A DNA stretch of 64,000 bases from Candidatus Moraniibacteriota bacterium (lineage in GTDB: Bacteria > Patescibacteriota > Minisyncoccia > Moranbacterales > GWC2-37-73): contig JAQTLF010000001.1 of assembly GCA_028715015.1 (NCBI GenBank), forward strand, positions 29,243 to 93,242, given 5' to 3'. Below are positions 13,293 through 59,964 of the stretch, one piece after another; positions within the stretch are counted from its first letter, which is position 1, and every line of letters starts with the position of its first letter. Position numbers and translations under genes: made by a program. The notes beneath the pieces were generated by a model. It was not told the origin of the DNA. It made no database searches and was given only the letters and a program-made list of their open reading frames with translations.

Positions 13293-13337
13293 AGCACGGT
13301 TTTTTGAATTTTTGTTTTATGCTATATGTTATACGCT

Positions 13338-15169: not shown

Positions 15170-15259
15170 ACTTGCTTCGCAAAGTCTAAAGTTTCAAGTC
15201 TAAAGCTAAAAGCAACCTAAACTTTATAAACATTGCAACATTATAAACCTTATAACTAT

Positions 15260-19524: not shown

Positions 19525-19605
19525 TGTTTTGATTTTATTCTATTGATTAAATTATCTTATCTAAAGTATAGCATATTATGGCAAAAAGACCACACTACGT
19601 CCAAA

Positions 19606-19746
19606 GATACAATGACCAAAAAATCTCAAATCTCAATTTCCAATGTCAAATAAAATCCAAAATCTCAAATCCTAAAAATTTTTTAGACATTTTGGCTTGA
19701 GTCATTTATTGGAAATTTGGATTTTGTCATTTGGATTTTAGTTTGA
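19606..19746. repeat. left arm of a long inverted repeat flanking the ruvX-map segment
   Basis: 19649-19746 is the exact reverse complement of 21381-21479; 19606-19648 matches RC(21547-21590) with one mismatch. Confidence 0.9.
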
Positions 19747-19770
19747 TGTTTGTTTCTTGTATCTTGTTGT

Positions 19771-21347: not shown

Positions 21348-21380
21348 ATTTTATCAATAATAAAGATACAAGAAGCAAAT

Positions 21381-21590
21381 ATCAAACTAAAATCCAAATG
21401 ACAAAATCCAAATTTCCAATAAATGACTCAAGCCAAAATGTCTAAAAAATTTTTAGGATTTGAGATTTTGGATTTTATTATCAAACGTAGCGAGTGTAAT
21501 AAAAAATTTTTTATTACCGAGCAAGTGCAGATAATATGGTAACCCATATTTGACATTGGAAATTGGGATTTGAGATTTTTTGGTTATTGT
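21381..21590. repeat. right arm of the long inverted repeat (carries a 67-bp internal insertion at 21480-21546)
   Basis: reverse complement of 19606-19746; the insertion contains the perfect palindrome GTAATAAAAAATTTTTTATTAC. Confidence 0.9.
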
Positions 21591-21604
21591 TTTTTGTTTC
21601 CTGA

Positions 21605-22246
21605 TTATTCTAATTCACTAACTATATCTCCAAAAACTTCTTCCACTCCCCTGTTTCCATCAACTTCAATCAGCATTCCTTTGTGGCGATAATGTTCAAT
21701 GACTGGAATGGTGATTTCATAGAAAGTGTCCAATCTTTTTTTGATTCCGTCTGGCGTGTCATCATTTCTTTGCATGATCGGTCCTCCGCATGTCGGACAA
21801 GGCTCTTCAGTGTTGTGGATATGTTTGCCAAGAACGAAATGGCGATAACAAACAGTGCATGCATAACGTTTGGTGATGCGCCTGACTGATTCGTCATAAG
21901 GCAAAGTGATGTATATGGCCTTATCTATTGGACGATTCATTTCTTGGAGCATCTTCTCCACTGGAACAATCTGACCAGATGTGCGTGGTGCGCTGTCCAG
22001 CAAGACGCCCCTTTCCGGGGAAACTTTTTCCAAACGATCTTCAAGAACTTCCAAAGTGATGTCATCCGGAATCATTTCTTTTTGATCCAAAATTTCCTTA
22101 ACATTTCTTCCGAGATCAGATTCTTCCCTGGAAATTTCCCTGAAAATAAGACCGGTTTCAATATGCGCCAAGTTGTATTTTTCACAGAGCAAATCAGCTT
22201 GTGTTCCCTTCCCGCTTCCCTGCGGACCAAAGATAATAATATTCAT
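21605..22246 (-). CDS. adk: adenylate kinase (zinc-lid type)
   Basis: P-loop GPQGSGKGT; lid CxxC...CxxC (CTVCYRH...CPTCGG). Confidence 0.95.
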   Translation of the reverse strand: MNIIIFGPQGSGKGTQADLLCEKYNLAHIETGLIFREISREESDLGRNVKEILDQKEMIPDDITLEVLEDRLEKVSPERGVLLDSAPRTSGQIVPVEKMLQEMNRPIDKAIYITLPYDESVRRITKRYACTVCYRHFVLGKHIHNTEEPCPTCGGPIMQRNDDTPDGIKKRLDTFYEITIPVIEHYRHKGMLIEVDGNRGVEEVFGDIVSELE

Positions 22247-22300
22247 GTTTTAGCTTTTTAGGCTTTAGCTTCTTAGCTTCTTAGCTTCTTGAAAAACTCA
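22247..22300 (-). repeat. octamer AAGAAGCU x3-5 repeat abutting the adk start
   Basis: minus-strand sense caAGAAGCTAAGAAGCTAAGAAGCTAAAGCCTAAAAAGCTAAAAC-ATG. Confidence 0.75.
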
Positions 22301-22348
22301 TTCAAATTCCTGAAAAGCTAATTGCCTAAAAAGCTATGAAGCTGTTAA

Positions 22349-23620
22349 TTAGAATCCTTCGTAATCTCTCATGACAAGTTGTCCTTCGATTTGTTTGATT
22401 GTTTCAATCACAACTGAAACAACAATAAGAATACTGGTGCCGCCAATCTTGAGAGACTGGATGTTTGTCATCCCTTGAATGACAAATGGCAGCACAGCAA
22501 TGGTTCCCAAGAAAATTGATCCGGTAAGTGTGATCCTATTCATGATCTTGTACAAAAAGTCGGCAGTTGTTTTTCCGGGTCTTATCCCTGGAATGTAGCC
22601 TCCTTGTTTTTGAAGATTTTCCGCAATTTTGACAGGATCAAAAACGACTGCGGTATAGAAATATGTGAACATGACAATCAAAATAAAATACAGACTGCTG
22701 TAAAAAACTTGGTTTTGGAAAAGGGTGTTCACGAATGCGGCCGCATGCGCAACCGCAGGATTTGAGGCTTTCATGAGGAAAGTAGCAATCATTCCAGGAA
22801 AAAGCATGATTGACATAGCGAAAATAATTGGAATAACTCCAGCTTGGTTGACTCGCAACGGCAAATGCGTTGTTGAACCGCCATAAGTCTTGTCGCCCCT
22901 CACTCTCTTGGCATATGAAACCGGAATGTTTCTTTGTCCTTCAGTCACCAACACAACACCGGCAATAGTGATCAGTGTGACAGCCAAAAGCGCAATGTAT
23001 GTAAAAATCTGGGTTGAATCCAAAGTCAAAAGAAGTTTGGAAATTCCGGAAGGAAGTCCGCTGACAATACCGGCAAAAATGATCAGGGACACGCCATTGC
23101 CTATGCCTTTTTCTGTGATAAGCTCGCCCAACCACATCAAAAATATAGTTCCAGCTGTGGCTATGATCACAATAACTGCAATATCAAAAGGTGCCGAGAC
23201 TGACAAAACCCCTTGTGAACGCAACAAGGTGATCAAACTGAAAGTCTGCAGAACTGCCAATGGCACAGTGAGCCATCTTGTCCACATGTTGAATTTTTGT
23301 CTTCCAGCTTCACCTTCCTCTTTATAGAGCTGCTCCACTCGCGGCACGATCATGGTCAAAAGCTGCATGATGATTGATGCGGTGATATATGGTCCGACGC
23401 CCAACATGACAATCGAAATGTTCGTCAATCCTCCGCCAGAAAAAACATTCAACATGCCCAAAAATTGATTGCCCTCAAAAAGACGTCTCAATTGTTCGAT
23501 ATTCACACCTGGAACCGGCACATTGGCAGCAATCCTGAAAACAACAAGAATCCCCAAAATGAAGAGGATCTTGTTGCGCAGTTCTGGTATTTTGAAGATT
23601 TGTGTTATTTTTTCAAGCAT
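22349..23620 (-). CDS. secY: preprotein translocase subunit SecY
   Basis: 423 aa, 10-TM SecY topology, in the conserved position after rplO. Confidence 0.95.
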   Translation of the reverse strand: MLEKITQIFKIPELRNKILFILGILVVFRIAANVPVPGVNIEQLRRLFEGNQFLGMLNVFSGGGLTNISIVMLGVGPYITASIIMQLLTMIVPRVEQLYKEEGEAGRQKFNMWTRWLTVPLAVLQTFSLITLLRSQGVLSVSAPFDIAVIVIIATAGTIFLMWLGELITEKGIGNGVSLIIFAGIVSGLPSGISKLLLTLDSTQIFTYIALLAVTLITIAGVVLVTEGQRNIPVSYAKRVRGDKTYGGSTTHLPLRVNQAGVIPIIFAMSIMLFPGMIATFLMKASNPAVAHAAAFVNTLFQNQVFYSSLYFILIVMFTYFYTAVVFDPVKIAENLQKQGGYIPGIRPGKTTADFLYKIMNRITLTGSIFLGTIAVLPFVIQGMTNIQSLKIGGTSILIVVSVVIETIKQIEGQLVMRDYEGF

Positions 23621-23624
23621 TTCA

Positions 23625-23720
23625 AATAGCTTCTCAGCTTCTTAGCCTTTCAGCTTCTTAGCTTTAAAGATAGCATTAGTTTTTTTAATTTCCTAAGAAG
23701 CTAACAAGCTAATGCCTCAG
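23625..23720 (-). repeat. octamer/nonamer GCTAAGAAG-type repeats upstream of secY
   Basis: sense ...AAGCTAAGAAGCTGAAAGGCTAAGAAGCTGAGAAGCTATTTGAA-ATG. Confidence 0.7.
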
Positions 23721-23723
23721 AAG

Positions 23724-24161
23724 CTACTCTAGGATTTTTCCACCTGCTTTGATTATAGCATCTTTGGCAGTTTGTGAAAGAAGTATTTCTGCTGAAATAG
23801 TAAGTTTTTTGGCAATTGTTCCGCTGGCAAGAATCTTTAGACCGTTTTTAACGTCAGCCTTGTCCACAATTTTTGCTCCAAGCAAAGTTTCAACCGAAAT
23901 GATGTCATTGTCTTTGAAAGCTTTTTCCAAAGTTTCCAATTTTATCACAGTTTTCTTGGCATTAAGAGATTTGAAACCTCGCACTTTTTTCAAGCGTTCA
24001 ACAAGTGAAGATCGTCCACCTTCAAACAACGGATCGATTGATGCTCCAGAGCGAGCTTTCTGACCTTTGTTTCCACGACCAGAATAAGTTCCGCGCTTTC
24101 CGCCACGACCAACTGTTTTTTTGTCCTTGCGTTTTTTTACTTTAAGTTGATGAATTTGCAT
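23724..24161 (-). CDS. rplO: 50S ribosomal protein L15
   Basis: Gly/Arg-rich N-terminus (GRGGKRGTYSGRG) and position between rpsE and secY. Confidence 0.9.
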   Translation of the reverse strand: MQIHQLKVKKRKDKKTVGRGGKRGTYSGRGNKGQKARSGASIDPLFEGGRSSLVERLKKVRGFKSLNAKKTVIKLETLEKAFKDNDIISVETLLGAKIVDKADVKNGLKILASGTIAKKLTISAEILLSQTAKDAIIKAGGKILE

Positions 24162-24241
24162 AAATTTAACTTATAACTTATAACTAACCACTTATAACGA
24201 ATTTTTACGTATTTCTGTTGTTTGTTATTTGTTATTGGTAA

Positions 24242-24760
24242 TTAGTTAGTCGCTGCTACTTCCTTGGCTGGCTCAACAACTTCCTTGATACGAGGTGCTT
24301 TCAAAGCTTTCAAAGCTTCAATTGTCACACGTGCCACATTAAGTTTGTTTGATGTCCCCAAAGATTTTGAAACGATGTCTCGAATACCAGCCAAGTCAAC
24401 AACTGCGCGTACAGCTCCTCCAGCAATAACTCCGCGTCCTTTTGAAGCAGGTTTCAATAAAACCTTAGCGCTTCCAAGTTTCATACTGATGTCGTGGGCG
24501 ATAGTGTTGTCAGACAATTTCACAGTGATCATCGATTTTTTGGCATCATTGTAAGCTTTGCCAATAGCATCAGAAACATCAGACCCTTTGGAAACTCCGA
24601 CTCCAACTCTTCCTTTGCGGTCACCAATAACCAATGTTGCGCGGAAACGAAATCTTCGTCCTCCTTTTACCACGCGGGTAACGCGAGCCAAGTCCAAAAG
24701 TTTTTGTTCAAACTCTGGTTTTTCTCTTCGTTGCTGTTTTTTTCCTGGTCTCTTATTCAT
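24242..24760 (-). CDS. rpsE: 30S ribosomal protein S5 (start MNKRP)
   Basis: S5 dsRBD-like and C-terminal domains; operon position. Confidence 0.95.
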   Translation of the reverse strand: MNKRPGKKQQRREKPEFEQKLLDLARVTRVVKGGRRFRFRATLVIGDRKGRVGVGVSKGSDVSDAIGKAYNDAKKSMITVKLSDNTIAHDISMKLGSAKVLLKPASKGRGVIAGGAVRAVVDLAGIRDIVSKSLGTSNKLNVARVTIEALKALKAPRIKEVVEPAKEVAATN

Positions 24761-24805
24761 AATTATCATTAATCATGGAACATGGAGCATGGAACAAAAA
24801 TTCCA
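24761..24805 (-). repeat. heptamer CATGGAA/CATGGAG repeat abutting the rpsE start
   Basis: aatcatggaacatggagcatggaac. Confidence 0.8.
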
Positions 24806-24852
24806 ATCTGCCACACAATGTTCTATGTTTTATGCTCTATGTTATGTGTTAT

Positions 24853-25203
24853 TTAAAACTGCAATCCACCTTCTCTGGCACCCTCAGCCAAAGCCTTAAC
24901 TTTTCCATGATATCTATATCCGGCTCTATCATAGGTAGCTGTGGTTATTTTAGCTGCAATGCATTTCTCAGCAAGCAACTTTCCCACTTCCTTGGAGCCT
25001 TCAACTGTGTTTTTGGCATTTTTAATCTCAGTAAGATTGGCGCTTGCAAGAGTTTTTCCTGCCACGTCATCAATTGCCTGGACATAAATTCCACGCAAAC
25101 TCTTGAAAACAGCCAAACGTGGTTTTTCTTGAGTTCCAGAAATTTTTGCTCGAACTCTGCGCTTTCGCTGCAGTCGTCCACTATTGCTACTTATTTTTTT
25201 CAT
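24853..25203 (-). CDS. rplR: 50S ribosomal protein L18
   Basis: L18 family sequence; operon position. Confidence 0.9.
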   Translation of the reverse strand: MKKISSNSGRLQRKRRVRAKISGTQEKPRLAVFKSLRGIYVQAIDDVAGKTLASANLTEIKNAKNTVEGSKEVGKLLAEKCIAAKITTATYDRAGYRYHGKVKALAEGAREGGLQF

Positions 25204-25245
25204 AATTTATAATGAATCATGGAACATGGAGCATGGAACATATTT
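25204..25245 (-). repeat. heptamer CATGGAA/CATGGAG repeat abutting the rplR start
   Basis: aatcatggaacatggagcatggaaca; a mini-ORF stop (UGA) overlaps the start (AUGA). Confidence 0.8.
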
Positions 25246-25287
25246 TTTATTATCTTGCTCTATGCTTTATGCTCTATGTTATGTGAT

Positions 25288-25824
25288 TTACTTGGATGAT
25301 TTCTTTCCTTCTTTTCTACGTACATGTTCTCCGACATATTTAAATCCTTTTCCCTTATACGGTTCGACTGGCTTAAGAGCTCTAATATTGGCAGAAAACT
25401 GTCCGACTGCATGCTTGTCTATTCCACTTACTGTCATGGTGTTACCTTCAATGACAACATCCAATCCAGCAGGCACTTCAACAATAACGGGATGTGAAAA
25501 TCCGAGTGCAAGAGTAATGGTCTTTCCTGCGATAGCCATACGAAAACCAACTCCATTGAGTTCGAGTTGTTTTTTGAAACCACTCACCACTCCTTCAATC
25601 ATATTTTCAATTCTACGAGCAGTTGTTCCCCAAATAGCTGGGACATGTTTTCCCTTGCTTTCCTTTTCAACTGTGAATTCATTTTCCCCAAATTTAATCG
25701 AAACATCAACATGATGTTCAAATGTCATTTCACCCTTTGGTCCTTTTACGGTAACAATGTTTTTGTCAGTTGTTACAGTTACACCCGCTGGGATAGCTAC
25801 TGGTTTTTTTCCAATTCTACTCAT
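25288..25824 (-). CDS. rplF: 50S ribosomal protein L6
   Basis: two-domain L6 sequence; operon position. Confidence 0.95.
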   Translation of the reverse strand: MSRIGKKPVAIPAGVTVTTDKNIVTVKGPKGEMTFEHHVDVSIKFGENEFTVEKESKGKHVPAIWGTTARRIENMIEGVVSGFKKQLELNGVGFRMAIAGKTITLALGFSHPVIVEVPAGLDVVIEGNTMTVSGIDKHAVGQFSANIRALKPVEPYKGKGFKYVGEHVRRKEGKKSSK

Positions 25825-25919
25825 ACTATTTTATCGTTCTAATTGTTATAATTGTTCTATGCGTTCTAGTTGTTTTTTCAATTACAACAGTTACAACATT
25901 TAGAACACTAGCACATCTA

Positions 25920-26324
25920 TTACCAAACTTCGCAAATTATTTCTCCACCAAGTCCCATTTTTCTTGCCTTATCACCAGTCATCATACCCTTAGATGTTGA
26001 CACGATCGAAATTCCATATCCATTCTTCACGCGTTTGATGTCAGTCTTTTTAACATAGATTCTCTGACCTTGGCGACTTACGCGTTTGATTTCTCGAATT
26101 GCAGGATTTTTTTCAGTATTTGAAACAACATCATACTTCAAAACAATCTTAAGTATCGGGAATGATTCACCCATTTCTTTCTTAACTGATTCGATAAAAT
26201 TTCTTTGCTCTAAAATTTTAGCGATAGACAGCTTTAGCTTCGAAAAAGGCACTGACACCTCGCGGTGTTTTACCATTTGCGCATTTCGAATTCTTGTAAG
26301 CATGTCTGCTATTGGATCTAACAT
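25920..26324 (-). CDS. rpsH: 30S ribosomal protein S8
   Basis: S8 family sequence; operon position. Confidence 0.95.
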   Translation of the reverse strand: MLDPIADMLTRIRNAQMVKHREVSVPFSKLKLSIAKILEQRNFIESVKKEMGESFPILKIVLKYDVVSNTEKNPAIREIKRVSRQGQRIYVKKTDIKRVKNGYGISIVSTSKGMMTGDKARKMGLGGEIICEVW

Positions 26325-26405
26325 ATACGAATTTCTTATACTAATTATTTTCTAATTACAATACAACTTTTTATAAAAATAAATTCTGTCGGAATCAATT
26401 TTGAT

Positions 26406-26591
26406 TTACCAACTGCTCTTGGTTACTCCCGGCAATTCTCCCTTACTTGCCAACTCCCGGAAACAAATCCTGCAGATATCGTAGGCGCGAAGGTATCCAT
26501 GCTTTCGACCACATCGCCAACAGCGGCGCACAATGCGGGTTGAAAACTTGGGTTTCTTCTCTGCTCTAGCTTCTGTAGATGTTTTTGCCAT
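26406..26591 (-). CDS. rpsZ: 30S ribosomal protein S14 type Z (zinc-binding)
   Basis: 61 aa with CxxC...CxxC ([10 protein letters not shown]...CRIC). Confidence 0.95.
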
Positions 26592-26677
26592 AATTTATCG
26601 TGAAACGTGGGGCGCGTAGCGTGGAGCGTTTGCATTCCTACGTTATGCGTTTTACGTTATGCGTTTTACCCTTTTAC

Positions 26678-27226
26678 TTATTCGCTTTTTAGCGGAAATC
26701 CTAATAATTTAAATAATTCCAGTCCTTCTTTTTGAGAATGCGCATTGGTTGAAACCGTGATCTGCATTCCAAAGGCATGTCGCACTTTTTCAGGAGATAT
26801 TTCAGGAAAAATCAGATGCTCTTTGATACCGATGTTCAAATTTCCTCCCATATCAACAGCTTTACGGTTAATTCCTTGGAAATCCCTTGTTCGTGGAAGT
26901 GTTGCACCAACAACCCTGTCAATGAACTGCCACATGCGAACTCCTCGCAAAGTAACTTTCACACCGATTTCCATTCCTTCGCGAATCTTGAATCCAGAAA
27001 TAGCTTTTTTGGCTTTGGTTTTTACTGGTTTTTGTCCAGTAATTGCAGTCAAGGCGCTCACGATTTCTTCAATCTTGTCATTTTCTTTGACAATTTTTCC
27101 AATTCCGACATTAACCACAACCTTCTGGATGCGAGGCACTGCCATGACGCTTTTGTAGCTGAATTTTTTCATCATCTCAGCTGCCGCCACCTTGGTATAT
27201 TTCTCTTTTGCTGGAGTTATATTCAT
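26678..27226 (-). CDS. rplE: 50S ribosomal protein L5
   Basis: L5 family sequence; operon position. Confidence 0.95.
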   Translation of the reverse strand: MNITPAKEKYTKVAAAEMMKKFSYKSVMAVPRIQKVVVNVGIGKIVKENDKIEEIVSALTAITGQKPVKTKAKKAISGFKIREGMEIGVKVTLRGVRMWQFIDRVVGATLPRTRDFQGINRKAVDMGGNLNIGIKEHLIFPEISPEKVRHAFGMQITVSTNAHSQKEGLELFKLLGFPLKSE

Positions 27227-27276
27227 ACGATTCGCTCTTAAAACAAATAAAATAATATTAATCTATATTTCTAAAT

Positions 27277-27582
27277 TTATAATTCTTTACCACATTTCTT
27301 ACAAAGTCTGACTTTTTTGTCACCAACCTTGGAATATGATACGCGAGTTGCTTTGGCACACGCCGGGCAAATGATCATAGCATTTGAAGCATCAAACGGG
27401 GCAGCGATTTCCACGCGTTGTCCGCGTTGTCCTTCTCTGCGAGCCTTTTGGTGTTTCTTCACAATATTCATTTTTTCCACCACTATCTTTCCCTCGCTAG
27501 GCACAGTTCTAAGAACCTTTCCTTGCTTACCTTTATCTTTGCCTGCTATTTTTTTTACGAGGTCTCCTTTTTTAATTCTCAT
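27277..27582 (-). CDS. rplX: 50S ribosomal protein L24
   Basis: KOW motif (MRIKKGDLVKKIAGKDKGKQGKV). Confidence 0.95.
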   Translation of the reverse strand: MRIKKGDLVKKIAGKDKGKQGKVLRTVPSEGKIVVEKMNIVKKHQKARREGQRGQRVEIAAPFDASNAMIICPACAKATRVSYSKVGDKKVRLCKKCGKEL

Positions 27583-27682
27583 ATATTTTAGTCAAAAGTC
27601 TTTCAAGTCTTTCAAGTCTTTCAAGCCAATGCATTTCTGCTTTATGGACTTTATGGACTTTCGACTTTATGGACTGCAATTA
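27583..27682 (-). repeat. ~95-bp composite repeat element, copy A (AAGTCTTTC x3 + aatgcatttctgc + TTTATGGAC x3)
   Basis: fills the rplN-rplX intergenic spacer; nearly identical to copies at 28049-28149 and 30483-30585. Confidence 0.9.
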
Positions 27683-28048
27683 TTATAATACTTCAGGTGC
27701 CAATGATACGATTTTTGCAAATCCCTTCTCTCTAAGCTCTCTGGCAATCGGTCCGAAAATTCGAGTTCCCTTTGGCTCCTTGTCATTCAAAACCACAGCA
27801 GCATTCTCATCAAAACGGATATAAGAACCGTCTTTGCGACGAATAGCTTTTTTTGTTCTAACCACAACTGCGCGAATCTTATCACCTTTCTTTACCAATC
27901 CTCGCGGTTCAGCTGATTTTACTGAGCAAACAATAATATCACCAACAGAAGCATAGCGTCTGCGAGATCCACCGAGAACTTTGAAGCACTCAATGATTTT
28001 TGCGCCTGAATTATCGGCTGCTCTTAACTTTGTTTCTGCTTGAATCAT
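27683..28048 (-). CDS. rplN: 50S ribosomal protein L14
   Basis: [18 protein letters not shown]-terminus. Confidence 0.95.
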
Positions 28049-28149
28049 ATATTTTAGTCAAAAGTCTATCAAGTCTATCAAGTCTATCAAGCTAATGCAT
28101 TTCTGCTTTATGGACTTTATGGACTTTCGACTTTATGGACTGCTATTAT
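28049..28149 (-). repeat. ~95-bp composite repeat element, copy B (AAGTCTATC x3 variant)
   Basis: the same substitution is present in all three tandem units of this copy (concerted variant). Confidence 0.9.
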
Positions 28150-28392
28150 TTATGCTATTACTGTGTGACTTTTGTCTTTGCTGATAGGTCGGCATTGGAT
28201 AAATTCAACCTTGTCACCTTTCTTGAATTTATTTTCCGCATCATGAACCTTGTATTTCTTGGTTGAGCGGTATTTTTTCAAATATTTCGGATGAGTTTTC
28301 AATGATTCAACGGCCACAACGATTGTTTTGTCCATCTTATCACTAACAACAACACCTTTCTTCTTTGCTAAATTTTTGATTATGTTTGCCAT
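28150..28392 (-). CDS. rpsQ: 30S ribosomal protein S17
   Basis: S17 OB-fold family sequence; operon position. Confidence 0.95.
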   Translation of the reverse strand: MANIIKNLAKKKGVVVSDKMDKTIVVAVESLKTHPKYLKKYRSTKKYKVHDAENKFKKGDKVEFIQCRPISKDKSHTVIA

Positions 28393-28421
28393 ATGTATAT
28401 TAATGCCCTTTCTAAAAATAA

Positions 28422-28616
28422 TTATTTTTGCTCGATGCGCTGATTCAATATGGTCAGTGCTCTTGCAATATCAGTCTTCAAAACTCGATACTGCCGGTGA
28501 TTTTTCACTTGTCTGGCAGCTATGTCAAATCTGAGCTTGACCGCCTGAGTTTGTTTCTCAGCAATCAGCTTTTTCAACTGCTCATTATTCATATCCTTAA
28601 TTTCCTGAATTTTCAT
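28422..28616 (-). CDS. rpmC: 50S ribosomal protein L29
   Basis: 64-aa helical L29; operon position. Confidence 0.9.
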   Translation of the reverse strand: MKIQEIKDMNNEQLKKLIAEKQTQAVKLRFDIAARQVKNHRQYRVLKTDIARALTILNQRIEQK

Positions 28617-28716
28617 AGGAGTATCGTTTTTTCAACTAAATTATTATCGAGCGTAACGGGTGAAATGATTCGCCAGCAGGTGAACATTTCCGAGTGAGCG
28701 ACGATATCAAAAATCT

Positions 28717-29130
28717 TTATTTTTCCTTAACCACAAACTTCGTTTTAACATTAAGCTTATGTGAGGCCAAGCGCATTGCTTCTTTGGCAATTGCTTCAGT
28801 GATGCCATCCATTTCAAACAAAACTCTTCCTTGCTTGGTCTTTGCCACGAAATGGTCAACACTTCCTTTTCCTTTACCCATAGGTGTTTCATCACCTTTT
28901 TTGGTCATAGGTTTGTCAGGAAAAATTCTGATCCAAATCTTACCACCACGCTTGACATATCTTGTCATTGCGCGACGTGCAGCTTCAATCTGACGAGCAG
29001 AAATAAGTCCGGATGTCATGGCTTTCAAACCATAGGTTCCAAAACTAACCGTATTGCCCTTAGTTGCAACTCCACGGATCTCTCCGCCTCGGTGAATCTT
29101 TCTGTGTTTAACTTTTTTCGGCATCAACAT
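28717..29130 (-). CDS. rplP: 50S ribosomal protein L16
   Basis: [16 protein letters not shown]-terminus. Confidence 0.95.
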
Positions 29131-29209
29131 ATGCGTATCTTTTAATTCAAAATGTAAACTTCGATTTGTTTATTATTATCGAGCGAGTGATGATAACAAG
29201 CTCTGCTTA

Positions 29210-29857
29210 CTATTGTTTGTCAAACACTTCTCCCTTATAGAGCCAAGTCTTGACTCCGATTGCTCCATAAGTTGTAAACGCGGTTGCTTTGGCAAAATCA
29301 ATATCAGCGCGAAGTGTGTGCAAAGGAACTGTTCCTCTGGAAAGCCACTCTCTGCGAGACATCTCTGCTCCACCCAAACGTCCAGAAACTTCAATTTTCA
29401 CTCCTTTGATATTCTTGTTCTTTTCGACTTGATCCAACATTGATTTCAGAATTCTGCGGAATGGAACACGTTTTTCCAGCTGTTCAGCCACATTTTGAGC
29501 AACCAAGGAAGCATTTTCCTCAAATTGTCTGACTTCCTGCGCTTCAATCTTGATATCGATCTTCTTTCCTGCAAAAAACTTTTTCTTGATAACCACAACC
29601 ATATCACCAATCCCTGTGCCGCCTCTTCCGATCAGAACTCCTGGACGAGATGTTTTGATGATCAATTTCAAAATGTTTGCGCTTCGTTCAATTTCCACAT
29701 CAGCAATTGCTGCAGATTTCCATTTCTTCATGACGAAATCACGAACCTGAACATCTTCCTTGAGTTTTTTAGTATAATCCTTACCTGCAAACCAGCGTGA
29801 TTTCCAAGTTGTAGTGATTCCTAGGCGCAGCCCTGTTGGATTGACTTTATGTCCCAT
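29210..29857 (-). CDS. rpsC: 30S ribosomal protein S3
   Basis: KH-domain S3 (MGHKVNPTGLRLG). Confidence 0.95.
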   Translation of the reverse strand: MGHKVNPTGLRLGITTTWKSRWFAGKDYTKKLKEDVQVRDFVMKKWKSAAIADVEIERSANILKLIIKTSRPGVLIGRGGTGIGDMVVVIKKKFFAGKKIDIKIEAQEVRQFEENASLVAQNVAEQLEKRVPFRRILKSMLDQVEKNKNIKGVKIEVSGRLGGAEMSRREWLSRGTVPLHTLRADIDFAKATAFTTYGAIGVKTWLYKGEVFDKQ

Positions 29858-29912
29858 AATTTTATAAATCTCTAATTAACTGTATTTTTTAGCTTTTATT
29901 ATTTCTAATATC

Positions 29913-30482
29913 CTATGCTCCTGATTTTCTTTGGAAAACTTTTTTCAAAAATCCACTGTCTTGACCCTTCTTTATTGTCTCTTTTTTTGCAGCCACTTTT
30001 TTGACAGATGTTTTTTCAGAAACTATTTCTTCTTCTTTTTCCTCTTTTTCGAATTCAGCCAAATGTTCCTTCATCATTTTTTCACGAGCAGCTTCCCTGT
30101 CAGCTCTTTCTTTTTCCAATTCTTTCTTTGATTTCCTGTTTTTTCCTTCAACTTTTTCTTCGAGTTCCAATTTGATATGAGAAGTTCTTTTCAAAATCAA
30201 TGTTGCACGTCCTTGTGCTCTTGGAAGCCATCTTTTCAGTTTAGCTCCTTCACCCACCAAAATGCTGCTCACGAACAAATTGTCCGCATCCAAACCGAAA
30301 TTGTTTTCAGCATTAGCAATGGCGCTTTTTAATAATTTTTCAAGTGGCTCGCTTGTTTTCTTCACAACATGCTGAAGTTGCACAAGAGCGGCACTGGCAT
30401 TCATCCCAACAATACTGTCTGTTACCAAACGGACTTTTCGTGGAGATGTTCTTAAATTGTTGAGTGATGCTATAACTTTCAT
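29913..30482 (-). CDS. rplV: 50S ribosomal protein L22 with a ~75-aa K/E-rich C-terminal extension
   Basis: L22 core followed by a low-complexity tail EEKVEGKNRKSKKELEKERADREAAREKMMKE... Confidence 0.9.
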   Translation of the reverse strand: MKVIASLNNLRTSPRKVRLVTDSIVGMNASAALVQLQHVVKKTSEPLEKLLKSAIANAENNFGLDADNLFVSSILVGEGAKLKRWLPRAQGRATLILKRTSHIKLELEEKVEGKNRKSKKELEKERADREAAREKMMKEHLAEFEKEEKEEEIVSEKTSVKKVAAKKETIKKGQDSGFLKKVFQRKSGA

Positions 30483-30585
30483 AAATGTTAGTCAAAAGTC
30501 TTTCAAGTCTTTCAAGTCTTTCAAGTCAATGCATTTCTGCTTTATAGACCTTATGAACTTTATAACTTTATGGACTGGATATTAC
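30483..30585 (-). repeat. ~95-bp composite repeat element, copy C (more diverged 3' half)
   Basis: AAGTCTTTC x3 + aatgcatttctgc + TTTATAGAC/TTATGAACT/TTTATGGAC. Confidence 0.85.
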
Positions 30586-30927
30586 TTATTTTTTCTTTGC
30601 CGGGGTATCATTTTTTGCAGCCTTCATAGCATCTTGCTGCTTTTGTTTTGCAGCTTGTTCCATTTCTTTCTGCATCTTACCTCCATGTCTGTTGAATTTG
30701 CGAGTTGGAGCAAATTCTCCAAATCTGTGTCCAACCATTTCTTCAGTTACATACACAGCGGTGTGCTCTCTTCCATTGTGAACTCCGAATGTAAAACCGA
30801 TCATTTCAGGTGCGATTGTGCAAGCTCTGGACCAAGTCTTGATTGTTCCTTCGCCAGGCTTAGCATTGATAACTTTTTTCATCACACGTGGGTCCACATA
30901 CAACCCTTTCTTTAAACTTCTTGACAT
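30586..30927 (-). CDS. rpsS: 30S ribosomal protein S19 with a basic C-terminal extension
   Basis: [13 protein letters not shown]-terminus; [13 protein letters not shown] core. Confidence 0.95.
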
Positions 30928-30983
30928 AATTTTAATTGAGTAGTTGATTAGCTAATTGATGTTCAACCAATTAACCATTTTAA

Positions 30984-31814
30984 CTATTTCTTAATCCTTC
31001 GTTTTACAATAAATTTATCACTATATCTGTTCTTCTTTCTTGTTTTCTTTCCAAGTGCTGGTTTTCCCCAAGGAGTTTTCGGATATTTCAAACCGATTCC
31101 TTGTCGTCCTTCTCCTCCTCCATGTGGATGATCAACAGGATTCATGGCTGATCCGCGAACTTCCGGTCTCTTTCCCTTCCATCTGTTTCTTCCAGCCTTT
31201 CCGAGTTTTTCTGCACTATGTTCAAAATTGCTAACTCTTCCGATTGTGGCATAGCATTCTTTGCTTACCAATCTGATCTCACCTGATGACATCTTAAGTT
31301 GTGCCATTTTGTCATCGATAGCCATCAATGTTGCTCCGCTTCCGGCGCTGCGAGTGATCTGTCCACCTTTTCCAGCAATCAATTCGATGTTTGAAACAAC
31401 TGTTCCTGATGGAATGTTTTTAAGAACTGTGCGGTTTCCTTTTTTGATCGGCGCATCAACTCCTGTCATAATTTCCATCCCGGCTTTCATACCTTCAGTC
31501 GCAAGCACATATTTTTTGTCCCCATCAATATATGAAATAAGACAGATAAGGGCGCTTCTGTTTGGATCCTTTTCCACAGAAACGATACGTCCAAGGACAC
31601 CAAATTTCTGTTGCTTGAAATCAACCAAGCGATATCGACGCTTGTGACCTCCACCTTGATGACGAGTTGAGATTTTTCCATGAGATCTTCCTGCTTTCTG
31701 TGTCATTGGTGCAAGCAAGGATTTTTCAGGTTTTTTGTCTGTCAAATTGTCAGGTTTAACAATAGACATGTTTCGCCTTCCTGCTGTATTTTTCTTGTAT
31801 ACTTTAATTGCCAT
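30984..31814 (-). CDS. rplB: 50S ribosomal protein L2
   Basis: GRNRWKGKRPEVRGSAMNPVDHPHGGGEG motif. Confidence 0.95.
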   Translation of the reverse strand: MAIKVYKKNTAGRRNMSIVKPDNLTDKKPEKSLLAPMTQKAGRSHGKISTRHQGGGHKRRYRLVDFKQQKFGVLGRIVSVEKDPNRSALICLISYIDGDKKYVLATEGMKAGMEIMTGVDAPIKKGNRTVLKNIPSGTVVSNIELIAGKGGQITRSAGSGATLMAIDDKMAQLKMSSGEIRLVSKECYATIGRVSNFEHSAEKLGKAGRNRWKGKRPEVRGSAMNPVDHPHGGGEGRQGIGLKYPKTPWGKPALGKKTRKKNRYSDKFIVKRRIKK

Positions 31815-31898
31815 AATATTTTTTAGGTTTTAGCTTTTTAGCCTTTAGCTTTTCAGGAAAAACCTGAGAAGCTTAGAAGCTAATGCCTGAACAGCTAT
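31815..31898 (-). repeat. octamer AAAAAGCU-type repeats abutting the rplB start
   Basis: sense GAAAAGCTAAAGGCTAAAAAGCTAAAACCTAAAAAATATT-ATG. Confidence 0.7.
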
Positions 31899-32291
31899 TT
31901 ATGCTCCTTGGAATAATTCGATCTTATCTCCTTGTTTCAATGTCACGGTTGCTTTTTTGAATCCTGATTTCGTTCCTTCATGGCGTCCATAAGCCTTTTT
32001 CTTTGGCTGAATGTTCACAACAGTGATTTTTTCAACTTTTACAGCATATATACCTTCGATGGCTAGTTTCACCTGTTTTTTGGTGGCACTGTTGATAACT
32101 TTGAAAGTATATTTATTGTGAGCCATCGCAGCATGAGTCTTTTCAGTAATCCAGGGTTCCACAAGAATCTTATATGCGATCCCGGAATTCTGCGCAGCCA
32201 CAACTGGCTTAGCTTCCGCCTTCTTGGCAACTTTTTTTGCTGCCACCTTTGGCTTATCAACTATTTCTTTTTTCTCTTCAATTGCTGCCAT
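31899..32291 (-). CDS. rplW: 50S ribosomal protein L23 with a ~35-aa Ala/Lys-rich N-terminal extension
   Basis: L23 core (AYKILVEPWITEKT...) preceded by AAKKVAKKAEAKPVVAA. Confidence 0.9.
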   Translation of the reverse strand: MAAIEEKKEIVDKPKVAAKKVAKKAEAKPVVAAQNSGIAYKILVEPWITEKTHAAMAHNKYTFKVINSATKKQVKLAIEGIYAVKVEKITVVNIQPKKKAYGRHEGTKSGFKKATVTLKQGDKIELFQGA

Positions 32292-32334
32292 ATGCTTTTC
32301 ACTTAATTCAAAATTTAAATTTCAATATTCAAAA

Positions 32335-32964
32335 TTATTTTGCGAATTTTTCTTCCAAAAATGCGATTGATGTCTTGCTCAAAAGCAAATATTTGTTGTT
32401 CAACAGATCCATCACATTCAAATCTTTTGTCTCAATATTGCTGATGTTTTTAAGGTTTCTGCTGATCACGGATGTTTTCTTTTCTTGTTCAGACAAGGAA
32501 ACCAAAACTTTTCCAGTAAGTTTTAGGTTTTTGATCACAGCAGCAAATTCCTTGGTCTTTGATTTCTCAACAAGCAATGAATCAAGCGCTACCAATGTTC
32601 CCTGACGAAGCTTTTCACTGATCGCAATCACGACAGCCTTTTGCTTCATTTTTTTGTTCAAATCTCTCTTGAAATTTCTTTCATTAGTAGGACCAAAAGC
32701 GACACCTCCGCCTTTCATCACAGGATTTCTTTTCTGTCCTTGTCTGGCTGATCCAGTTCCCTTTTGTTTGAAAGGTTTCTTTCCTGATCCGGCAACCTCA
32801 CTTTTATCCTTGGTGTGAGCAATCGGATTTCTTTGATTTCCAGCAATAACCATAAAAACCTGATGCAAGAGCTCGTCATTTGCTTTGGCAGCAAAAACAG
32901 CATCTGATACGGTCAAGTCTTCTATTTTTTTTCCTTCTTGATTGTGAACAGCAATTGTAGCCAT
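32335..32964 (-). CDS. rplD: 50S ribosomal protein L4
   Basis: L4 family sequence; operon position. Confidence 0.95.
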   Translation of the reverse strand: MATIAVHNQEGKKIEDLTVSDAVFAAKANDELLHQVFMVIAGNQRNPIAHTKDKSEVAGSGKKPFKQKGTGSARQGQKRNPVMKGGGVAFGPTNERNFKRDLNKKMKQKAVVIAISEKLRQGTLVALDSLLVEKSKTKEFAAVIKNLKLTGKVLVSLSEQEKKTSVISRNLKNISNIETKDLNVMDLLNNKYLLLSKTSIAFLEEKFAK

Positions 32965-33021
32965 AATGTTTCAAATATCTAATTTCTAATTTCTAATGCC
33001 CAATCTCTAAAAAAATTTAAA

Positions 33022-33582
33022 TTATCCTCTCACTTCAACAATTCTACCAACAACTCCCGGTACAGCTCCCAACACTCCCATAATATTCTTTTCACTGTCG
33101 ATATATACAACTTTGATTCCCTTGGTTGTTGATCTCTTGCCTCCCATGCGTCCAGCCATTCTTTTTCCTTTGATGACATGCTGTGGTTGCTGAGCACCAA
33201 TTGAACCAGGAGCTCTGTGGTCATGCTTGTGTCCATGAGTCGCAGGAGAACCTTTGAATCCATGGCGCTTCACAACTCCTTGGAATCCTTTTCCTTTGGT
33301 TATTCCACTGATTTGTACTTCATCGCCCAATTGGAAACTTTCAATTGTAAGTTTGTCGCCAACTGTCACAGTTGCAGCTTCTTCTAAACGGAATTCCTTG
33401 CGGTGAGTGACATTCTTTGTTTTGGCAAGCTCCAATTGAACTGCATCATAACCATTCTTTTCCTGTGTGCGAACAACAGAAACAGTGTTCTCAGGACATT
33501 CAATCAATGTCACATTCAAAGCACCCTGCAACTTGTCGTACAGTGTTGTCATTCCGATTTTTTTTCCTAAAATGTATTTCAT
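33022..33582 (-). CDS. rplC: 50S ribosomal protein L3 (start refined to MKYILGKKIGMT)
   Basis: GKKIGMT N-terminus typical of L3. Confidence 0.95.
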   Translation of the reverse strand: MKYILGKKIGMTTLYDKLQGALNVTLIECPENTVSVVRTQEKNGYDAVQLELAKTKNVTHRKEFRLEEAATVTVGDKLTIESFQLGDEVQISGITKGKGFQGVVKRHGFKGSPATHGHKHDHRAPGSIGAQQPQHVIKGKRMAGRMGGKRSTTKGIKVVYIDSEKNIMGVLGAVPGVVGRIVEVRG

Positions 33583-33767
33583 ATATGTGTAAATATTCGT
33601 TGATTTCGCTTTTTGCTTAAAAAAAATCTGGCGTTCAGCCAGCATAATCCAGGAAAATTCCTGATTCAGCTAGTTGAGTATCCCGAATATTCAGGACTTT
33701 AACTAGAATTTTTTCTTTTTTCTAACTTATCTATATTAAACCACTTCTCAAAATAATGCAAGACCTT

Positions 33768-34100
33768 TTACATCTTTATTTCCACATCAACTCCAGCTGG
33801 CAAATCAAGACTGGTGAGGTTCTCAATTGTCTTGGCGGTTGGATCCCAGATATCAATCAGGCGTTTGTGAATTCGCATTTCGTACTGGTCTCTTGCATCC
33901 TTATATACGAAAGTCGATTTATTCACAGTAACCTTATGGATTTCTGTTGGAAGCGGTACAGGTCCAGTGAATTTTGATCCGCTACGTTCAACAGTTTCCA
34001 CTATTTTACGTGCAGATTGATCAATCACTTTGCTGTCATAAGCTTTGATCTTGATCCTTATTCTTGTAGCTTGTTCGTTTTCTGTTTTTTTCGCAGCCAT
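33768..34100 (-). CDS. rpsJ: 30S ribosomal protein S10
   Basis: IRIKIKAYD...PTAKTIENL motifs. Confidence 0.95.
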
Positions 34101-34191
34101 CTGAGTCTTTTAAATAAACGATTAAAATTATTGTTCAGGTTAACAGTCGCAAGCATGAGATGAATCTCATGCCTGCTCAATTATCTGAAAA

Positions 34192-35385
34192 CTATTTGAT
34201 GATTTTTGTTGTAACACCAGCTCCGACAGTCTTGCCACCTTCGCGGATAGCGAAGCGCATTCCTTCTGCCATAGCTACAGGAGCAATCAATTTGATAACC
34301 AAGTTGATTGTATCTCCAGGCATAACCATTTCAGTTCCTTCTGGAAGGATAACTTCTCCAGTCACATCGGTTGTACGGATGTAGAATTGAGGTTTGTATC
34401 CTTTGAAGAATGGAGTGTGACGTCCGCCTTCTTCCTTGGTCAAAATGTAAATCTCACCTTCAAATTCAGTATGAGGAGTGATTGAACCTGGTTTAGCCAA
34501 AACTTGTCCGCGTTCAACATCTTCCTTTTTGATTCCACGAATCAAAAGTCCGGCGTTGTCTCCAGCCATACCACTGCTCAATGATTTGTTGAACATTTCG
34601 ATTCCAGTCACAACTGTTTTTGCAGTTGGGCGAAGACCAACGATTTCAACTTCTTCATTGATGTTGATTTGTCCTGATTCGATTCTTCCTGTTACCACTG
34701 TTCCGCGACCTTCAATTGAGAAGATGTCTTCGATAGGCATAAGGAAAGGTTTGTCAGTTTCACGCACAGGTTCCGGGATTTGTGCATCCAAAGCGTCCAT
34801 CAAGTCATAGATTGGTTTCAGAGCAGCGTCATCAGCAGATGCAGCTTCAAGAGCCTTGGTGGCTGATCCACGGATAACAGCAGCGTTGTCACCATCAAAT
34901 TCATATTTTGAAAGAAGTTCACGAACTTCAGCTTCAACCAAATCAACAAGTTCAGCATCATCAACTGCATCAACCTTGTTAATGAAAACAACGATTGCAG
35001 GCACACCGATCTGGCGAGCAAGCAAAATGTGTTCGCGAGTCTGTGGCATAGGACCATCAGTAGCAGAAACAACCAAGATTGCTCCATCCATCTGAGCAGC
35101 ACCAGTGATCATGTTCTTGATGTAGTCAGCATGACCTGGACAATCAACATGAGCGTAGTGACGAGTATCAGTTTCATATTCACAATGAGAAGTAGCAATG
35201 GTAATTCCGCGTTCTCTTTCTTCTGGAGCGTTGTCGATTTCACCAACTCCTCTTTCTTTTGCAAATCCTTTCTTGGATTGTCCGTGCAAAATAGCCGCGG
35301 TCAAAGTTGTTTTGCCGTGGTCAACGTGTCCGATTGTTCCAACATTTACATGTGGTTTTGTTCGCTCAAATGTTCCTACTGCCAT
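34192..35385 (-). CDS. tuf: elongation factor Tu (probable start [13 protein letters not shown]; an alternative upstream ATG lies at 35424)
   Basis: [11 protein letters not shown]-loop; DCPGHADY; NKVD. Confidence 0.97.
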
Positions 35386-35645
35386 AGTGTTTTTTTCGCA
35401 TTTCTCTTCAAGCTTTTTGCCCAAGAGTGCGATTGTTTAGGATAATTATTTATTTATCTTAACATGAATTTACTTCAATGAGCAAATTCAAAAATTCCTT
35501 ATGTGGAAATTAGATACTTAATTATTTTACACGAATGAGAATATATGTCAAGGGTCAAAAATCAATCTTTAACATTTTATTATTAATATGCGGTTTTTAA
35601 GGATATTTTGGCTTAAACAATGGATGTTGCCCTATAAATATCCAA

Positions 35646-35674
35646 ATGCAAAAACAGCCCTTTTCAAGGCTGTT
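35646..35674 (-). terminator. rho-independent terminator
   Basis: ACAGCC-cttttcaa-GGCTGT hairpin followed by a T-run on the minus strand. Confidence 0.6.
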
Positions 35675-35693
35675 TTAGAAAGTGTGTTTTTTT

Positions 35694-36026
35694 TCAAGAC
35701 TGATGCGACAAAGAAAGGTTTTCCAACTTGACGACACGTTTTTCCAATCTTTCAAATTCTTCAGCATCAACTTTTCGTTTCAGCTCAAATTTCACCTCCA
35801 CCATGTCGTCTTGAAGCCTGTCTATCTTTGTTTCAACAAGATCAAGCCTGTTATCTATACCATCAAGCCTAACATCAATGCCATCAAATCGAGCATTAAC
35901 ATTTTCAAATTTGATTTCCATAACTTCCGCAAGTGTTTCGATCTTTCCGTCCATTTTTTCCAAAATGGCCCCGATCTCATTTACTGTGAAAGTTTTTTCT
36001 GTTGTTGTTTGTGATGCGTTTTTCAT
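35694..36026 (-). CDS. hypothetical coiled-coil protein
   Basis: 110 aa, heptad-like DxxRLDGIDxRLD repeats; no known domain recognised. Confidence 0.5.
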   Translation of the reverse strand: MKNASQTTTEKTFTVNEIGAILEKMDGKIETLAEVMEIKFENVNARFDGIDVRLDGIDNRLDLVETKIDRLQDDMVEVKFELKRKVDAEEFERLEKRVVKLENLSLSHQS

Positions 36027-36062
36027 GTTCGTATTTTATAACTATAAATTGAGGCGGTCAAA

Positions 36063-36290
36063 TCATTTCAGATAAGTTTTTGCTTCCTCTATTGTAGCAA
36101 TGAAATTTGCAACATGATCTTTGAATATCAGTGTCCTATTGGTGACATTTTCACCTTTTTGATTTTTGTAGGAGTCAGTGATGGTCAGATAGTTGCTGCC
36201 ATTACTGGCTTTTTTCACATCAAAAAAATAGTTTTTACTCCCGGCACGAAGCATTTTGGAGAATACGCTCTCTCTTGAATTGTTTTCCAT
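36063..36290 (-). CDS. DUF3276 / PUR-alpha-like nucleic-acid-binding protein
   Basis: VFSKMLRAGSKNYFFDVKKASNGSNYLTITDS matches the DUF3276 (PurA-like) repeat signature. Confidence 0.65.
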   Translation of the reverse strand: MENNSRESVFSKMLRAGSKNYFFDVKKASNGSNYLTITDSYKNQKGENVTNRTLIFKDHVANFIATIEEAKTYLK

Positions 36291-36462
36291 GTGTTTTTGT
36301 CTTTTGTCTTGCCAAATCCTGTCACTGACAGAAAATTTAACAAGGATTTTAATTTTTATATTGTTTGCTGAGCGTGGCCATCGCTCGCAGTGTCATCTTA
36401 TCACTGATTCAATATCACTGCAAGTATCAACGGCTGTGGATAACTTTATTCCCCAACAAGTC

Positions 36463-45508: not shown

Positions 45509-45583
45509 TAACCCAATAATGCTGTTTTATAAGTTGTCACTGAAGAATCAAATCTGAGAAATGATTCTTCAGTGACACAAGTT

Positions 45584-59948: not shown

Positions 59949-59964
59949 TTGAAATTTATTGGTT

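Follow-up and report, generated by a model that had tools for sequence, protein, structure and literature searches.

Genomes of the ultra-small bacteria of the candidate phyla radiation (CPR, or Patescibacteria) are regarded as streamlined. What, then, are the ~95-bp, repeat-bearing elements that separate genes of the S10-spc ribosomal protein (r-protein) operon in a 64,000-nt stretch of Candidatus Moraniibacteriota bacterium (assembly GCA_028715015.1, contig JAQTLF010000001.1, positions 29,243 to 93,242; this whole stretch is called the window below)? Three such elements, upstream of rplX, rplN and rplV, had been seen in an initial annotation of the sequence, which suggested that they are internal promoters, processing sites or binding sites of an autoregulatory r-protein. 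Scans anchored on the L14 protein identified the host as a Parcubacteria-group CPR bacterium, near Moranbacteria. With modest confidence, we favor another reading. The three elements, and the class to which they belong, would be fast-turning-over repeat elements carried in the operon transcripts, passengers or at most generic spacers, and not gene-specific regulators.

The three elements were found at the positions given in the initial annotation. They are on the minus strand, the sense strand of the operon. Each takes up a whole spacer, from a few bases past the upstream stop codon to the downstream ATG: copy A the rplN-to-rplX spacer (27583-27682), copy B the rpsQ-to-rplN spacer (28049-28149) and copy C the rpsS-to-rplV spacer (30483-30585). 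They are 100-103 nt long and share 94% (A/B), 88% (A/C) and 84% (B/C) pairwise identity. A 22-nt core matched exactly these three sites at up to three mismatches, with no match expected from 100 shuffles.

Both arms of each copy are arrays with a 9-nt period. The 3' arms were perfect arrays of 3.3-3.6 copies (100% matches, Tandem Repeats Finder, TRF): (CTTGAAAGA)x3 in copy A (27596-27625, 3.3 copies), followed by CTTTTGACTAAAATAT and the rplX ATG; (CTTGATAGA)x3 in copy B (28062-28091); and (CTTGAAAGA)x3 in copy C (30496-30527, 3.6 copies). The 5' arms were looser, with 75-79% matches by TRF. They lie at 27640-27675 in copy A (GTCCATAAA-type units, 4.2 copies, 79% matches), at 28106-28141 in copy B and at 30540-30576 in copy C (75% matches). 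Read directly, the 5' arm is GTCCATAAA-GTCGAAA-GTCCATAAA-GTCCATAAA in A and B, and the degenerate GTCCATAAA-GTTATAAA-GTTCATAAG-GTCTATAAA in C. The two triplets of 9-nt repeats described initially were thus half right: the 3' triplet is perfect, whereas the 5' arm is not a clean triplet and has decayed in copy C. The substitution said to be shared by all units of copy B is real and lies in the 3' arm, with CTTGATAGA in 3/3 units where A and C have CTTGAAAGA. This bears out the claim that array units are kept alike. The change, from A to T, gives one extra A-U pair per unit in the predicted helix.

Complementarity between the 5' and 3' arms of the three copies was only ~6/9 per unit. As sense RNA, copy A folded at -23.7 kcal/mol (z -4.9) and copy B at -23.0 kcal/mol (z -4.1), each better than 200/200 shuffles; copy C, at -18.2 kcal/mol (z -1.8), folded no better than chance. 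The spacers can therefore fold, as had been supposed, for two of the three copies. As single-stranded DNA, all three formed weak hairpins (-3 to -12.5 kcal/mol), which lends little direct support to a DNA-hairpin mechanism for this family.

An assembly artefact was rejected, as three independent contigs reproduce the window sequence. Copy B occurs without any difference (100% identity) in the Joint Genome Institute (JGI) contig L081. The Logan contig L163 starts within the 3' arm of copy C, and its first 35 nt equal the window copy up to the rplV ATG. A further Logan contig, L162, was 100% identical over 4254 nt, which cover five neighboring elements of the same class. Exact-protein look-ups with L24, S19, L5, S8 and L2 matched no record, and no independent contig was obtained across copy A. 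Both L162 and L163 terminate at elements.

The A/B/C copies form one young, strain- or species-restricted family within a clade-wide class of repeat elements. At least 15 spacers of the window share one layout with differing units: a 5' array of 7-11-nt units, a centre, a roughly complementary 3' array and the ATG. Printed in sense orientation, most spacers of the S10-spc-secY-adk-map cluster follow this plan, with unit sequences varying by spacer, and spacers of the same layout occur in the r-protein, glycolysis, hydrogenase and SMC regions of the window. For a census, 129 spacers of at least 55 nt, from the window and 18 related loci, were each aligned to their own reverse complement, and periodicity was measured in both arms under a strict definition of the element. 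Strict elements made up 30 of the 129 spacers. Their periods were 7 nt (20 elements), 9 nt (6), 11 nt (3) and 8 nt (1), with 3-5 unit copies, so that the 9-nt period of the A/B/C family differs from the dominant 7-nt period of the class. The median strict element was 87.5 nt long, started 3 nt past the stop codon and ended 6 nt before the ATG. Elements of the class are as a rule imperfect palindromes of 75-105 nt; among 13 examined, size was 75-156 nt and G+C 0.21-0.45. More than ten unrelated unit sequences were seen, each array partnered by a complementary array with which it forms a hairpin. All copies seen had a single polarity relative to the genes, in loci that were themselves almost unidirectional.

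Comparison with relatives revealed a rapid turnover of these spacers. The closest species representative, L001 (GW2011_GWC1_36_108), has r-proteins ~89% identical to those of the window, and the metagenome contig L082 is ~80% identical. At the three sites, L001 has short spacers (22, 29 and 52 nt), and L082 has elements of other families. Neither ~2.2 Mb of related loci nor the ten additional close operons L167-L176 yielded any copy to a profile of the A/B/C 9-mer family. Searches for further copies, as proposed with the initial annotation, found the 9-mer family nowhere else in the window or the relatives apart from a 17-nt relic, and the same architecture in most other spacers of this operon and several outside it. 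The 29-nt rplN-to-rplX spacer of L001 opens with the same 17 nt as copy A, a complete GTCCATAAA unit among them, which from the sequence is most simply a deletion relic. Because these 17 nt persist in a sister species, copy A is probably the oldest of the three copies.

Other families change places in the same way. The family that we call rplF-type occupies five spacers in L082. The CATAGAG/GTTCCAT family, present in the window, lies in rpsS-to-rplV in L082, in rplW-to-rplB in L001 and in secY-to-adk in both L004 and L089. In L081, the sequence matches that of the window at 100% identity over rpsQ, copy B and rplN and on into rplX for ~150 nt. Here, a 91-nt rplF-type element replaces copy A, and the switch occurs exactly at the TAA and the ATG.

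An exact look-up of the S14 protein provided ten operons of the L001 species complex, with coding DNA 93-100% identical to L001. Their spacers were bimodal: between L001 and L168, 10 were identical, 2 similar and 11 replaced. Five states of the rplE-to-rpsN spacer were found in the complex, a 20-nt empty form and four different elements. The alleles formed a mosaic across strains, as homologous recombination would give. Filled alleles of the tandem type retained 0-6 nt of the short allele, and no target-site duplication flanked them. In L168, L169 and L172, the arms of the rplC-to-rplD element are identical, by direct reading, to those of the rplW-to-rplB element of the same genome, so that the former looks like a recent copy from ~1.2 kb away. 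At another junction of L168 (locus 8805-9062), L14 was called at only 85 aa and abuts rplX without a spacer; the close relatives L169, L172 and L175 carry a 92-nt element between rplN and rplX. The assembly may have collapsed here, or the element may be the site of a deletion.

Spacers from rpsJ to map total 1950 nt in the window vs 200-650 nt in relatives, in agreement with the initial remark that r-protein operons are normally spacer-poor. Compact operons, in which spacers sum to 200-500 nt, were found in L002, L041, L087, L089 and L014, so the operon can function without the elements. Their absence from close relatives with otherwise identical operons, which the initial annotation had named, together with unaffected transcript levels, as a sign of a recently spread selfish repeat, speaks against a conserved regulatory role and points to a recently spread repeat.

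Family sequences are nevertheless kept well above the neutral expectation, as judged from third codon positions: these were 52.9% identical between the window and L082, close to saturation, whereas element copies at non-orthologous spacers of the two were 82-88% identical. The best pair, with 84/88 aligned bases identical, joins the rplF-type 9-mer element of the window, in rpsH-to-rplF (25825-25919, minus strand), to the rpsE-to-rplO copy of L082. Direct reading of the window rplF-to-rplR element (25204-25287, minus strand; CATAGAG/GTTCCAT) and the rpsS-to-rplV element of L082 gave the same repeat arrays with different loops. In three of five families the 3' arm was better conserved than the 5' arm, and loops were the least conserved. 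Covariation was tested in two other families of the class, the A/B/C family having only three copies. Compensatory pairs numbered 0/23 and 2/15, and most variation disrupts pairs.

The pairing was also asymmetric between strands. G·U and A·C were scored equally in defining the arms, and each type was then counted. Read as mRNA, the elements contained 133 A·C vs 57 G·U (p = 3.5e-8). A·C exceeded G·U in 21 elements and the reverse held in 8, whereas in other spacers the two types were near equal (G·U 211 vs A·C 206). It is thus the complement of the mRNA that forms the better helices. A clear example is the rplE-to-rpsN element of the window (26592-26677, minus strand; 7-mer ACGCATA/CGCTnCA, recognized by layout, fold and census), with -34.3 kcal/mol antisense vs -15.4 kcal/mol sense (sense z -0.1). 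A hairpin used as a control behaved in the opposite way: in the tuf-to-rpsJ spacer (34101-34191, minus strand), where a hairpin follows right after the tuf stop codon in 13/13 genomes compared, G·U outnumbered A·C by 35 to 10, as expected for a structure selected in mRNA. A-for-G replacement was high in both arms (57% and 26%) and U-for-C replacement was lower (18% and 31%). AT-biased decay of the 5' arm was therefore rejected as the source of the A·C excess, which is consistent with the general G-poor leader composition of this organism without Shine-Dalgarno (SD) sequences. We read the asymmetry as selection that keeps the mRNA form of a DNA palindrome weak; it may alternatively stem from selection on the antisense or template strand.

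The origin and spread of the elements can be pictured as follows. Arrays are homogenized, as in copy B, and replication slippage would do this, judging from the known behavior of short tandem repeats. The arms are kept roughly complementary, which may go back to a fold-back or template-switching origin. Elements are then copied between spacers of one genome, each replacing the entire previous spacer. This is shown by nearly identical copies in spacers that are not orthologous and by strains that, though almost the same, differ by swaps from stop to start. Candidate agents are microhomology-mediated template switching, for which the shared TAA...TAAATAT-ATG contexts would serve, or an enzyme specific for hairpins. 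Homologous recombination would shuffle the alleles among strains, in keeping with the mosaic pattern. From their position, the elements are presumably co-transcribed with the operon. They may be tolerated because the A·C mismatches weaken the mRNA hairpin and the 3' array, which is A/U-rich, G-poor and free of SD sequences, provides an SD-less leader.

A bolder version of the same idea is tentative, and we consider it possible rather than probable. It would make these elements a structure-defined, so far undescribed CPR class of tandem-armed palindromes, moved or rewritten as stop-to-start cassettes by a dedicated activity, either an enzyme recognizing hairpins or arrays or a templated replacement. 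Each cassette would bring an SD-independent leader, and operon spacers would be an exchangeable expression layer. Scans of viral contigs with three conserved arm patterns pointed to no vector. One pattern had no match, and the others matched by chance, in giant-virus contigs (L165, L166) at a (KDL)n-coding repeat and in L164 at a long, simple array of 9-nt units.

Several observations weigh against the elements being passengers. The better-kept 3' arm and the cross-species consensus of families could mean function and not spread, and a single polarity is equally expected for a functional mRNA element. The strand asymmetry comes mainly from the 7-mer families: copies A, B and C have 1-2 G·U vs 3-4 A·C each, and their RNA energies on the two strands are mixed. 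The swap at zero divergence depends on one 1-kb contig (L081). Finally, no transposase, nuclease or recombinase was recognized among the ~55 window proteins checked.

The main rival is a functional, translational reading, modeled by analogy on the TAACTGA arrays of other bacteria. The 3' array would be a platform for the ribosome or for a single-stranded-RNA-binding protein (S1 or a cold-shock-type protein), and the 5' array would mask it until a terminating ribosome melts the helix, thereby coupling translation and equalizing subunit output. A 5' array that starts right behind the stop codon and a 3' array that ends 6 nt before the ATG would be the geometry of such coupling, and A·C mismatches would leave the mRNA hairpin meltable. 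The window genes also make no use of SD sequences: SD-like 4-mers precede 7/65 genes vs 15% of random 16-mers, and the leaders are A/T-rich and G-poor. The order of conservation, with the 3' arm ahead of 5' arm and loop, fits as well, as do arm sequences conserved between species at different sites. Heptamer arrays stand before SD-less starts in Beggiatoaceae and cyanobacteria, where binding by S1, Csp or CsrA was proposed (PMC4679880). However, more than ten unrelated units in four periods would call for many specificities, or none. The same gene carries a different family or no element in near-identical strains, the relatives with compact operons do without, and the supposed masking helix has no covariation and is decayed in copy C. 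We judge this reading unlikely, with a chance that is small but real. A further rival is a role in mRNA processing or stability, in which the hairpins would be targets of RNase III or RNase E/Y, or barriers to 3'-exonucleases, that segment and stabilize the transcript. REP, ERIC and Correia elements act as such hairpins in other bacteria. The elements here are intercistronic, presumably co-transcribed, and fold into long, imperfect hairpins; for many spacers the RNA z-score is -4 to -7. Yet the mRNA strand consistently pairs less well than its complement, the sense folds of rplE-to-rpsN and copy C resemble shuffles, covariation is lacking and presence varies by strain, all of which makes such a role improbable.

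The two remaining explanations are weaker still. One is a purely local origin by slippage and palindrome-correcting template switching in place, without copying between spacers; resemblances would then come from shared seeds such as the TAAATAT-ATG leader. In its favor, the 29-nt L001 spacer holds exactly one GTCCATAAA unit in the copy A flank, a 7-nt duplication (ATGATTA x2) runs across the rpsE start codon, and heptamer slippage was proposed as a general bias (PMC4692102). Still, identical arrays sit at non-orthologous spacers within one genome, 84/88 aligned bases agree between species, and A, B and C share their whole 100 nt, centre and tails included. These paralogous copies largely refute a local origin, which we regard as very improbable. 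Least credible, and close to untenable, is the initial interpretation as internal promoters or autoregulatory r-protein operators. The 3' arm does contain TTGAAA and TTGACT hexamers, and a few promoter-like matches of 9-10/12 overlap copies B and C. In these, however, the -10 box falls on or beyond the ATG, and sigma-70-like sites in general (-35 and -10 hexamers 16-18 nt apart) were not in excess (35 vs 33.6 ± 6.2 in shuffles) and showed no consistent placement in elements. As to operators, the A/B/C element is absent from every relative examined at the same spacers, elements move between spacers, and there is neither covariation nor a match to an Rfam r-protein leader, whereas a genuine, covarying leader sits elsewhere in the operon, between rpsJ and rplC. 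Rfam 15 gave no match at gathering score anywhere in the window, and a permissive scan of the operon gave only a chance miRNA match (E = 0.14). Of the terminator-like sites (G+C-rich stem and T-run) in 21300-36300, 0/10 lay within an element.

How do the elements relate to known repeats? Heptamer direct repeats of the TAACTGA type lie upstream of start codons in Beggiatoaceae, cyanobacteria and Bacteroidetes (PMC4679880), and related arrays include the cyanobacterial STRR heptamers and the GGGAATC-type arrays of Xanthomonas and Nostoc, some of the Xanthomonas arrays being inverted pairs (PMC4692102). Like these (2-6 copies in known arrays), the arrays described here are short intergenic tandem units, mostly of 7 nt, that point toward SD-less start codons from within a few nt, r-protein operons included. 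They are also patchy among relatives, with close strains differing in length and sequence. One array, (TTACTGA)x5 directly before the rplB ATG in the rplW-to-rplB spacer of L082, is one base off TAACTGA (PMC4679880). The differences are that nearly every array here has a complementary partner, making the whole spacer palindromic; that many units with periods of 7-11 nt occur vs one dominant heptamer predicted to be unstructured; and that the elements replace whole spacers from stop to start, in CPR bacteria.

Repeats of the ERIC and Correia type are ~100-nt imperfect palindromes that are intergenic, transcribed, present in multiple families, polymorphic in presence and able to fold in mRNA. 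The elements share with them and with other miniature inverted-repeat transposable elements (MITEs) the ~100-nt imperfect palindrome between genes, the multiple families and the strain polymorphism. Their ends are inverted repeats, but in the form of arrays, vs the unique terminal inverted repeats of MITEs. Unlike MITEs, they leave no target-site duplication, replace the old spacer instead of adding to it, were seen in one orientation and have an apparently small copy number per family. No cognate transposase was found among the window proteins scanned. Small palindromic operon repeats, among them ERIC/IRU, Correia/NEMIS, RUP, BOX and other MITEs, are reviewed in PMC3184786.

REP and REPIN sequences, mobilized by RAYT transposases, are likewise extragenic, hairpin-forming repeats; the spread of REPs relies on a single-strand hairpin and their families are kept by propagation. 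REPs are 20-40 nt long and G+C-rich, with a conserved GTAG (PMC3116915), whereas the elements are about 75-156 nt long, have 21-45% G+C and lack GTAG in 10/13 cases. The window proteins scanned included no RAYT. Integron attC sites are imperfect palindromes of 57-141 nt between co-directional genes, diverse in sequence but common in architecture, whose folding favors the strand opposite to the mRNA. The A·C excess gives the elements the same strand preference, a resemblance in behavior only. RYYYAAC ... GTTRRRY (R''/R') core sites were present in 0/13 elements on either strand, the flanking genes are universally ordered r-protein genes and not cassettes, and no integrase was recognized among the window proteins. 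Finally, r-protein leaders such as the S10/L4 leader are also structured RNA inside r-protein operons, but true leaders are fixed in position, conserved and covarying, and the A/B/C elements are none of these. The elements thus mix traits of heptamer arrays and small palindromic repeats and pass the defining tests of neither. A literature search on CPR intergenic repeats, paired inverted tandem arrays and Moranbacteria retrieved no description of them; its coverage was incomplete, and it does not prove novelty.

Further members of the class in the window, all on the minus strand, are as follows. An 8-mer family, AGCTTnTT/AAGAAGCT, occupies secY-to-adk (22247-22348; layout, palindrome census and fold), rplO-to-secY (23621-23723), the only site that keeps the same family in L001 and L082, and rplW-to-rplB (31815-31898; layout and census). 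The rpsE-to-rplO spacer holds a 7-mer element, AATAACA/GTTATAA (24162-24241), where the spacer of the L001 complex is 1 nt. Another CATAGAG/GTTCCAT element, in rplR-to-rpsE (24770-24852), is identical in L162. Its 3' array carries an ATG every 7 nt, and at the rpsE start (24758-24778, minus strand) two 7-nt ATGATTA units span the start codon (CCATGATTAATGATTATAATG), so that slippage evidently reaches the start region. For these two reasons the true start of rpsE is ambiguous; it was called at 172 aa in L162 and at 175 aa here.

Outside the r-protein operon, a 7-mer family lies upstream of an SMC-like gene (9205-9360; TRF and census), and elements of the same class lie upstream of GAPDH (11541-11622; census), of hypA (11944-12000; CATATAA/CTACATG, TRF and census) and of the NiFe-hydrogenase large subunit (13261-13345; TRF and census). 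A probable member with 9-nt and 7-nt arrays was found upstream of hypC (15170-15259; TRF and census). A longer member with AAATCCA/TGGATTT-type units precedes a glycosyltransferase gene (19525-19770; layout and census), and sequence related to it recurs in adk-to-map (21348-21604).

Several kinds of small repeat colonize spacers in this clade. A palindromic family without tandem arms, TTGTCGTCGCT..CGGAAATG..CATTTC..GCTAGACAATAAG, also occurs in r-protein spacers, and in the L001 complex the TTGTCGTCGCT-type family behaves as a simple insertion, with the old 3' flank kept. Further sites of non-tandem palindromic repeats are 3336-3489, 28617-28716 and 29131-29209 in the window, the rplE-to-rpsN spacer of L001, and spacers of L004, L082 and L084. 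A ~170-nt palindromic family, CCCGCACCAA...TTGGTGCGGG, was seen in relatives. In the window, two ~170-nt palindromic copies without tandem arms (45339-45583 and 59900-60151) are oppositely oriented and have fold z-scores between -8 and -12.

The genuine leader of the operon lies in the rpsJ-to-rplC spacer (33628-33767, minus strand). It is a multi-hairpin structure, ACTAGTTAAAGTCC-[variable hairpin]-GGATACTCAACTAGCC, followed by a second hairpin, a terminator-like stem CTGGCTGAACGCCAG and a T-run. The motif was detected in 16/18 relatives searched, compact operons included, and as a positive control for covariation it had 6/14 compensatory pairs among 12 relatives. It had no Rfam match. Lying ahead of rplC, it has the appearance of a true r-protein attenuator or leader that has not been described before, and it implies that the rplC start was called too far upstream, at 33645. 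The rplB-to-rpsS spacer (30928-30983, minus strand) contains TAGTTAAAATG-[hairpin]-TAATGAACTAA, whose flanks are also kept in L001, L168 and L170. Its inner hairpin is wholly different between genomes yet perfect (GATTTCTC...GAGAGATT in L001, GGTCGCC...GGCGAC in L168). Similar to the outer portion of the rpsJ-to-rplC leader, the motif is a second structured-leader candidate. Among promoter-like sites of the region, TTGACA-16-TAAAAT, upstream of tuf (35551-35524), ranked best.

Other features of the window were recorded in passing. Nearly all genes are on one strand, and the plus-strand GC skew is -0.13. There is no L30 gene between rpsE and rplO (23724-24769), and L22 (29913-30482) has a K/E-rich C-terminal extension of ~70 aa. 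In the stretch 539-777 of the minus strand, an L7/L12-like gene has its 3' end in two copies ~120 nt apart, a partial duplication (~30 nt) with two terminator-like hairpins lying between and after the copies. Between the GAPDH and SMC genes, ~600 nt without open reading frames (~9580-10230, minus strand) have 48-58% G+C in a 40% G+C genome and end in a canonical terminator, GCCCCGA...TCGGGGC and TTTTTT. The stretch matched no tRNA, tmRNA or Rfam family, and its fold z-scores were only -2.3 and -2.9; it is a candidate for an unannotated structured RNA gene.

In practical terms, the elements disrupt short-read assemblies. They are sensitive strain markers, and in motif screens they risk being confused with regulatory RNAs. 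For the biology of these bacteria, the most conserved bacterial operon in this sub-clade bears 1.5-2.2 kb of interchangeable hairpin repeats despite the supposed streamlining. These repeats outpace synonymous-site change in their turnover and differ even between strains with identical coding DNA. If they are mobile, they spread without target duplication, by replacement of whole spacers. A functional role would instead reveal how bacteria without SD sequences organize their translation starts, and would connect CPR operons with the unexplained heptamer arrays known from cyanobacteria, Beggiatoaceae and Xanthomonas.

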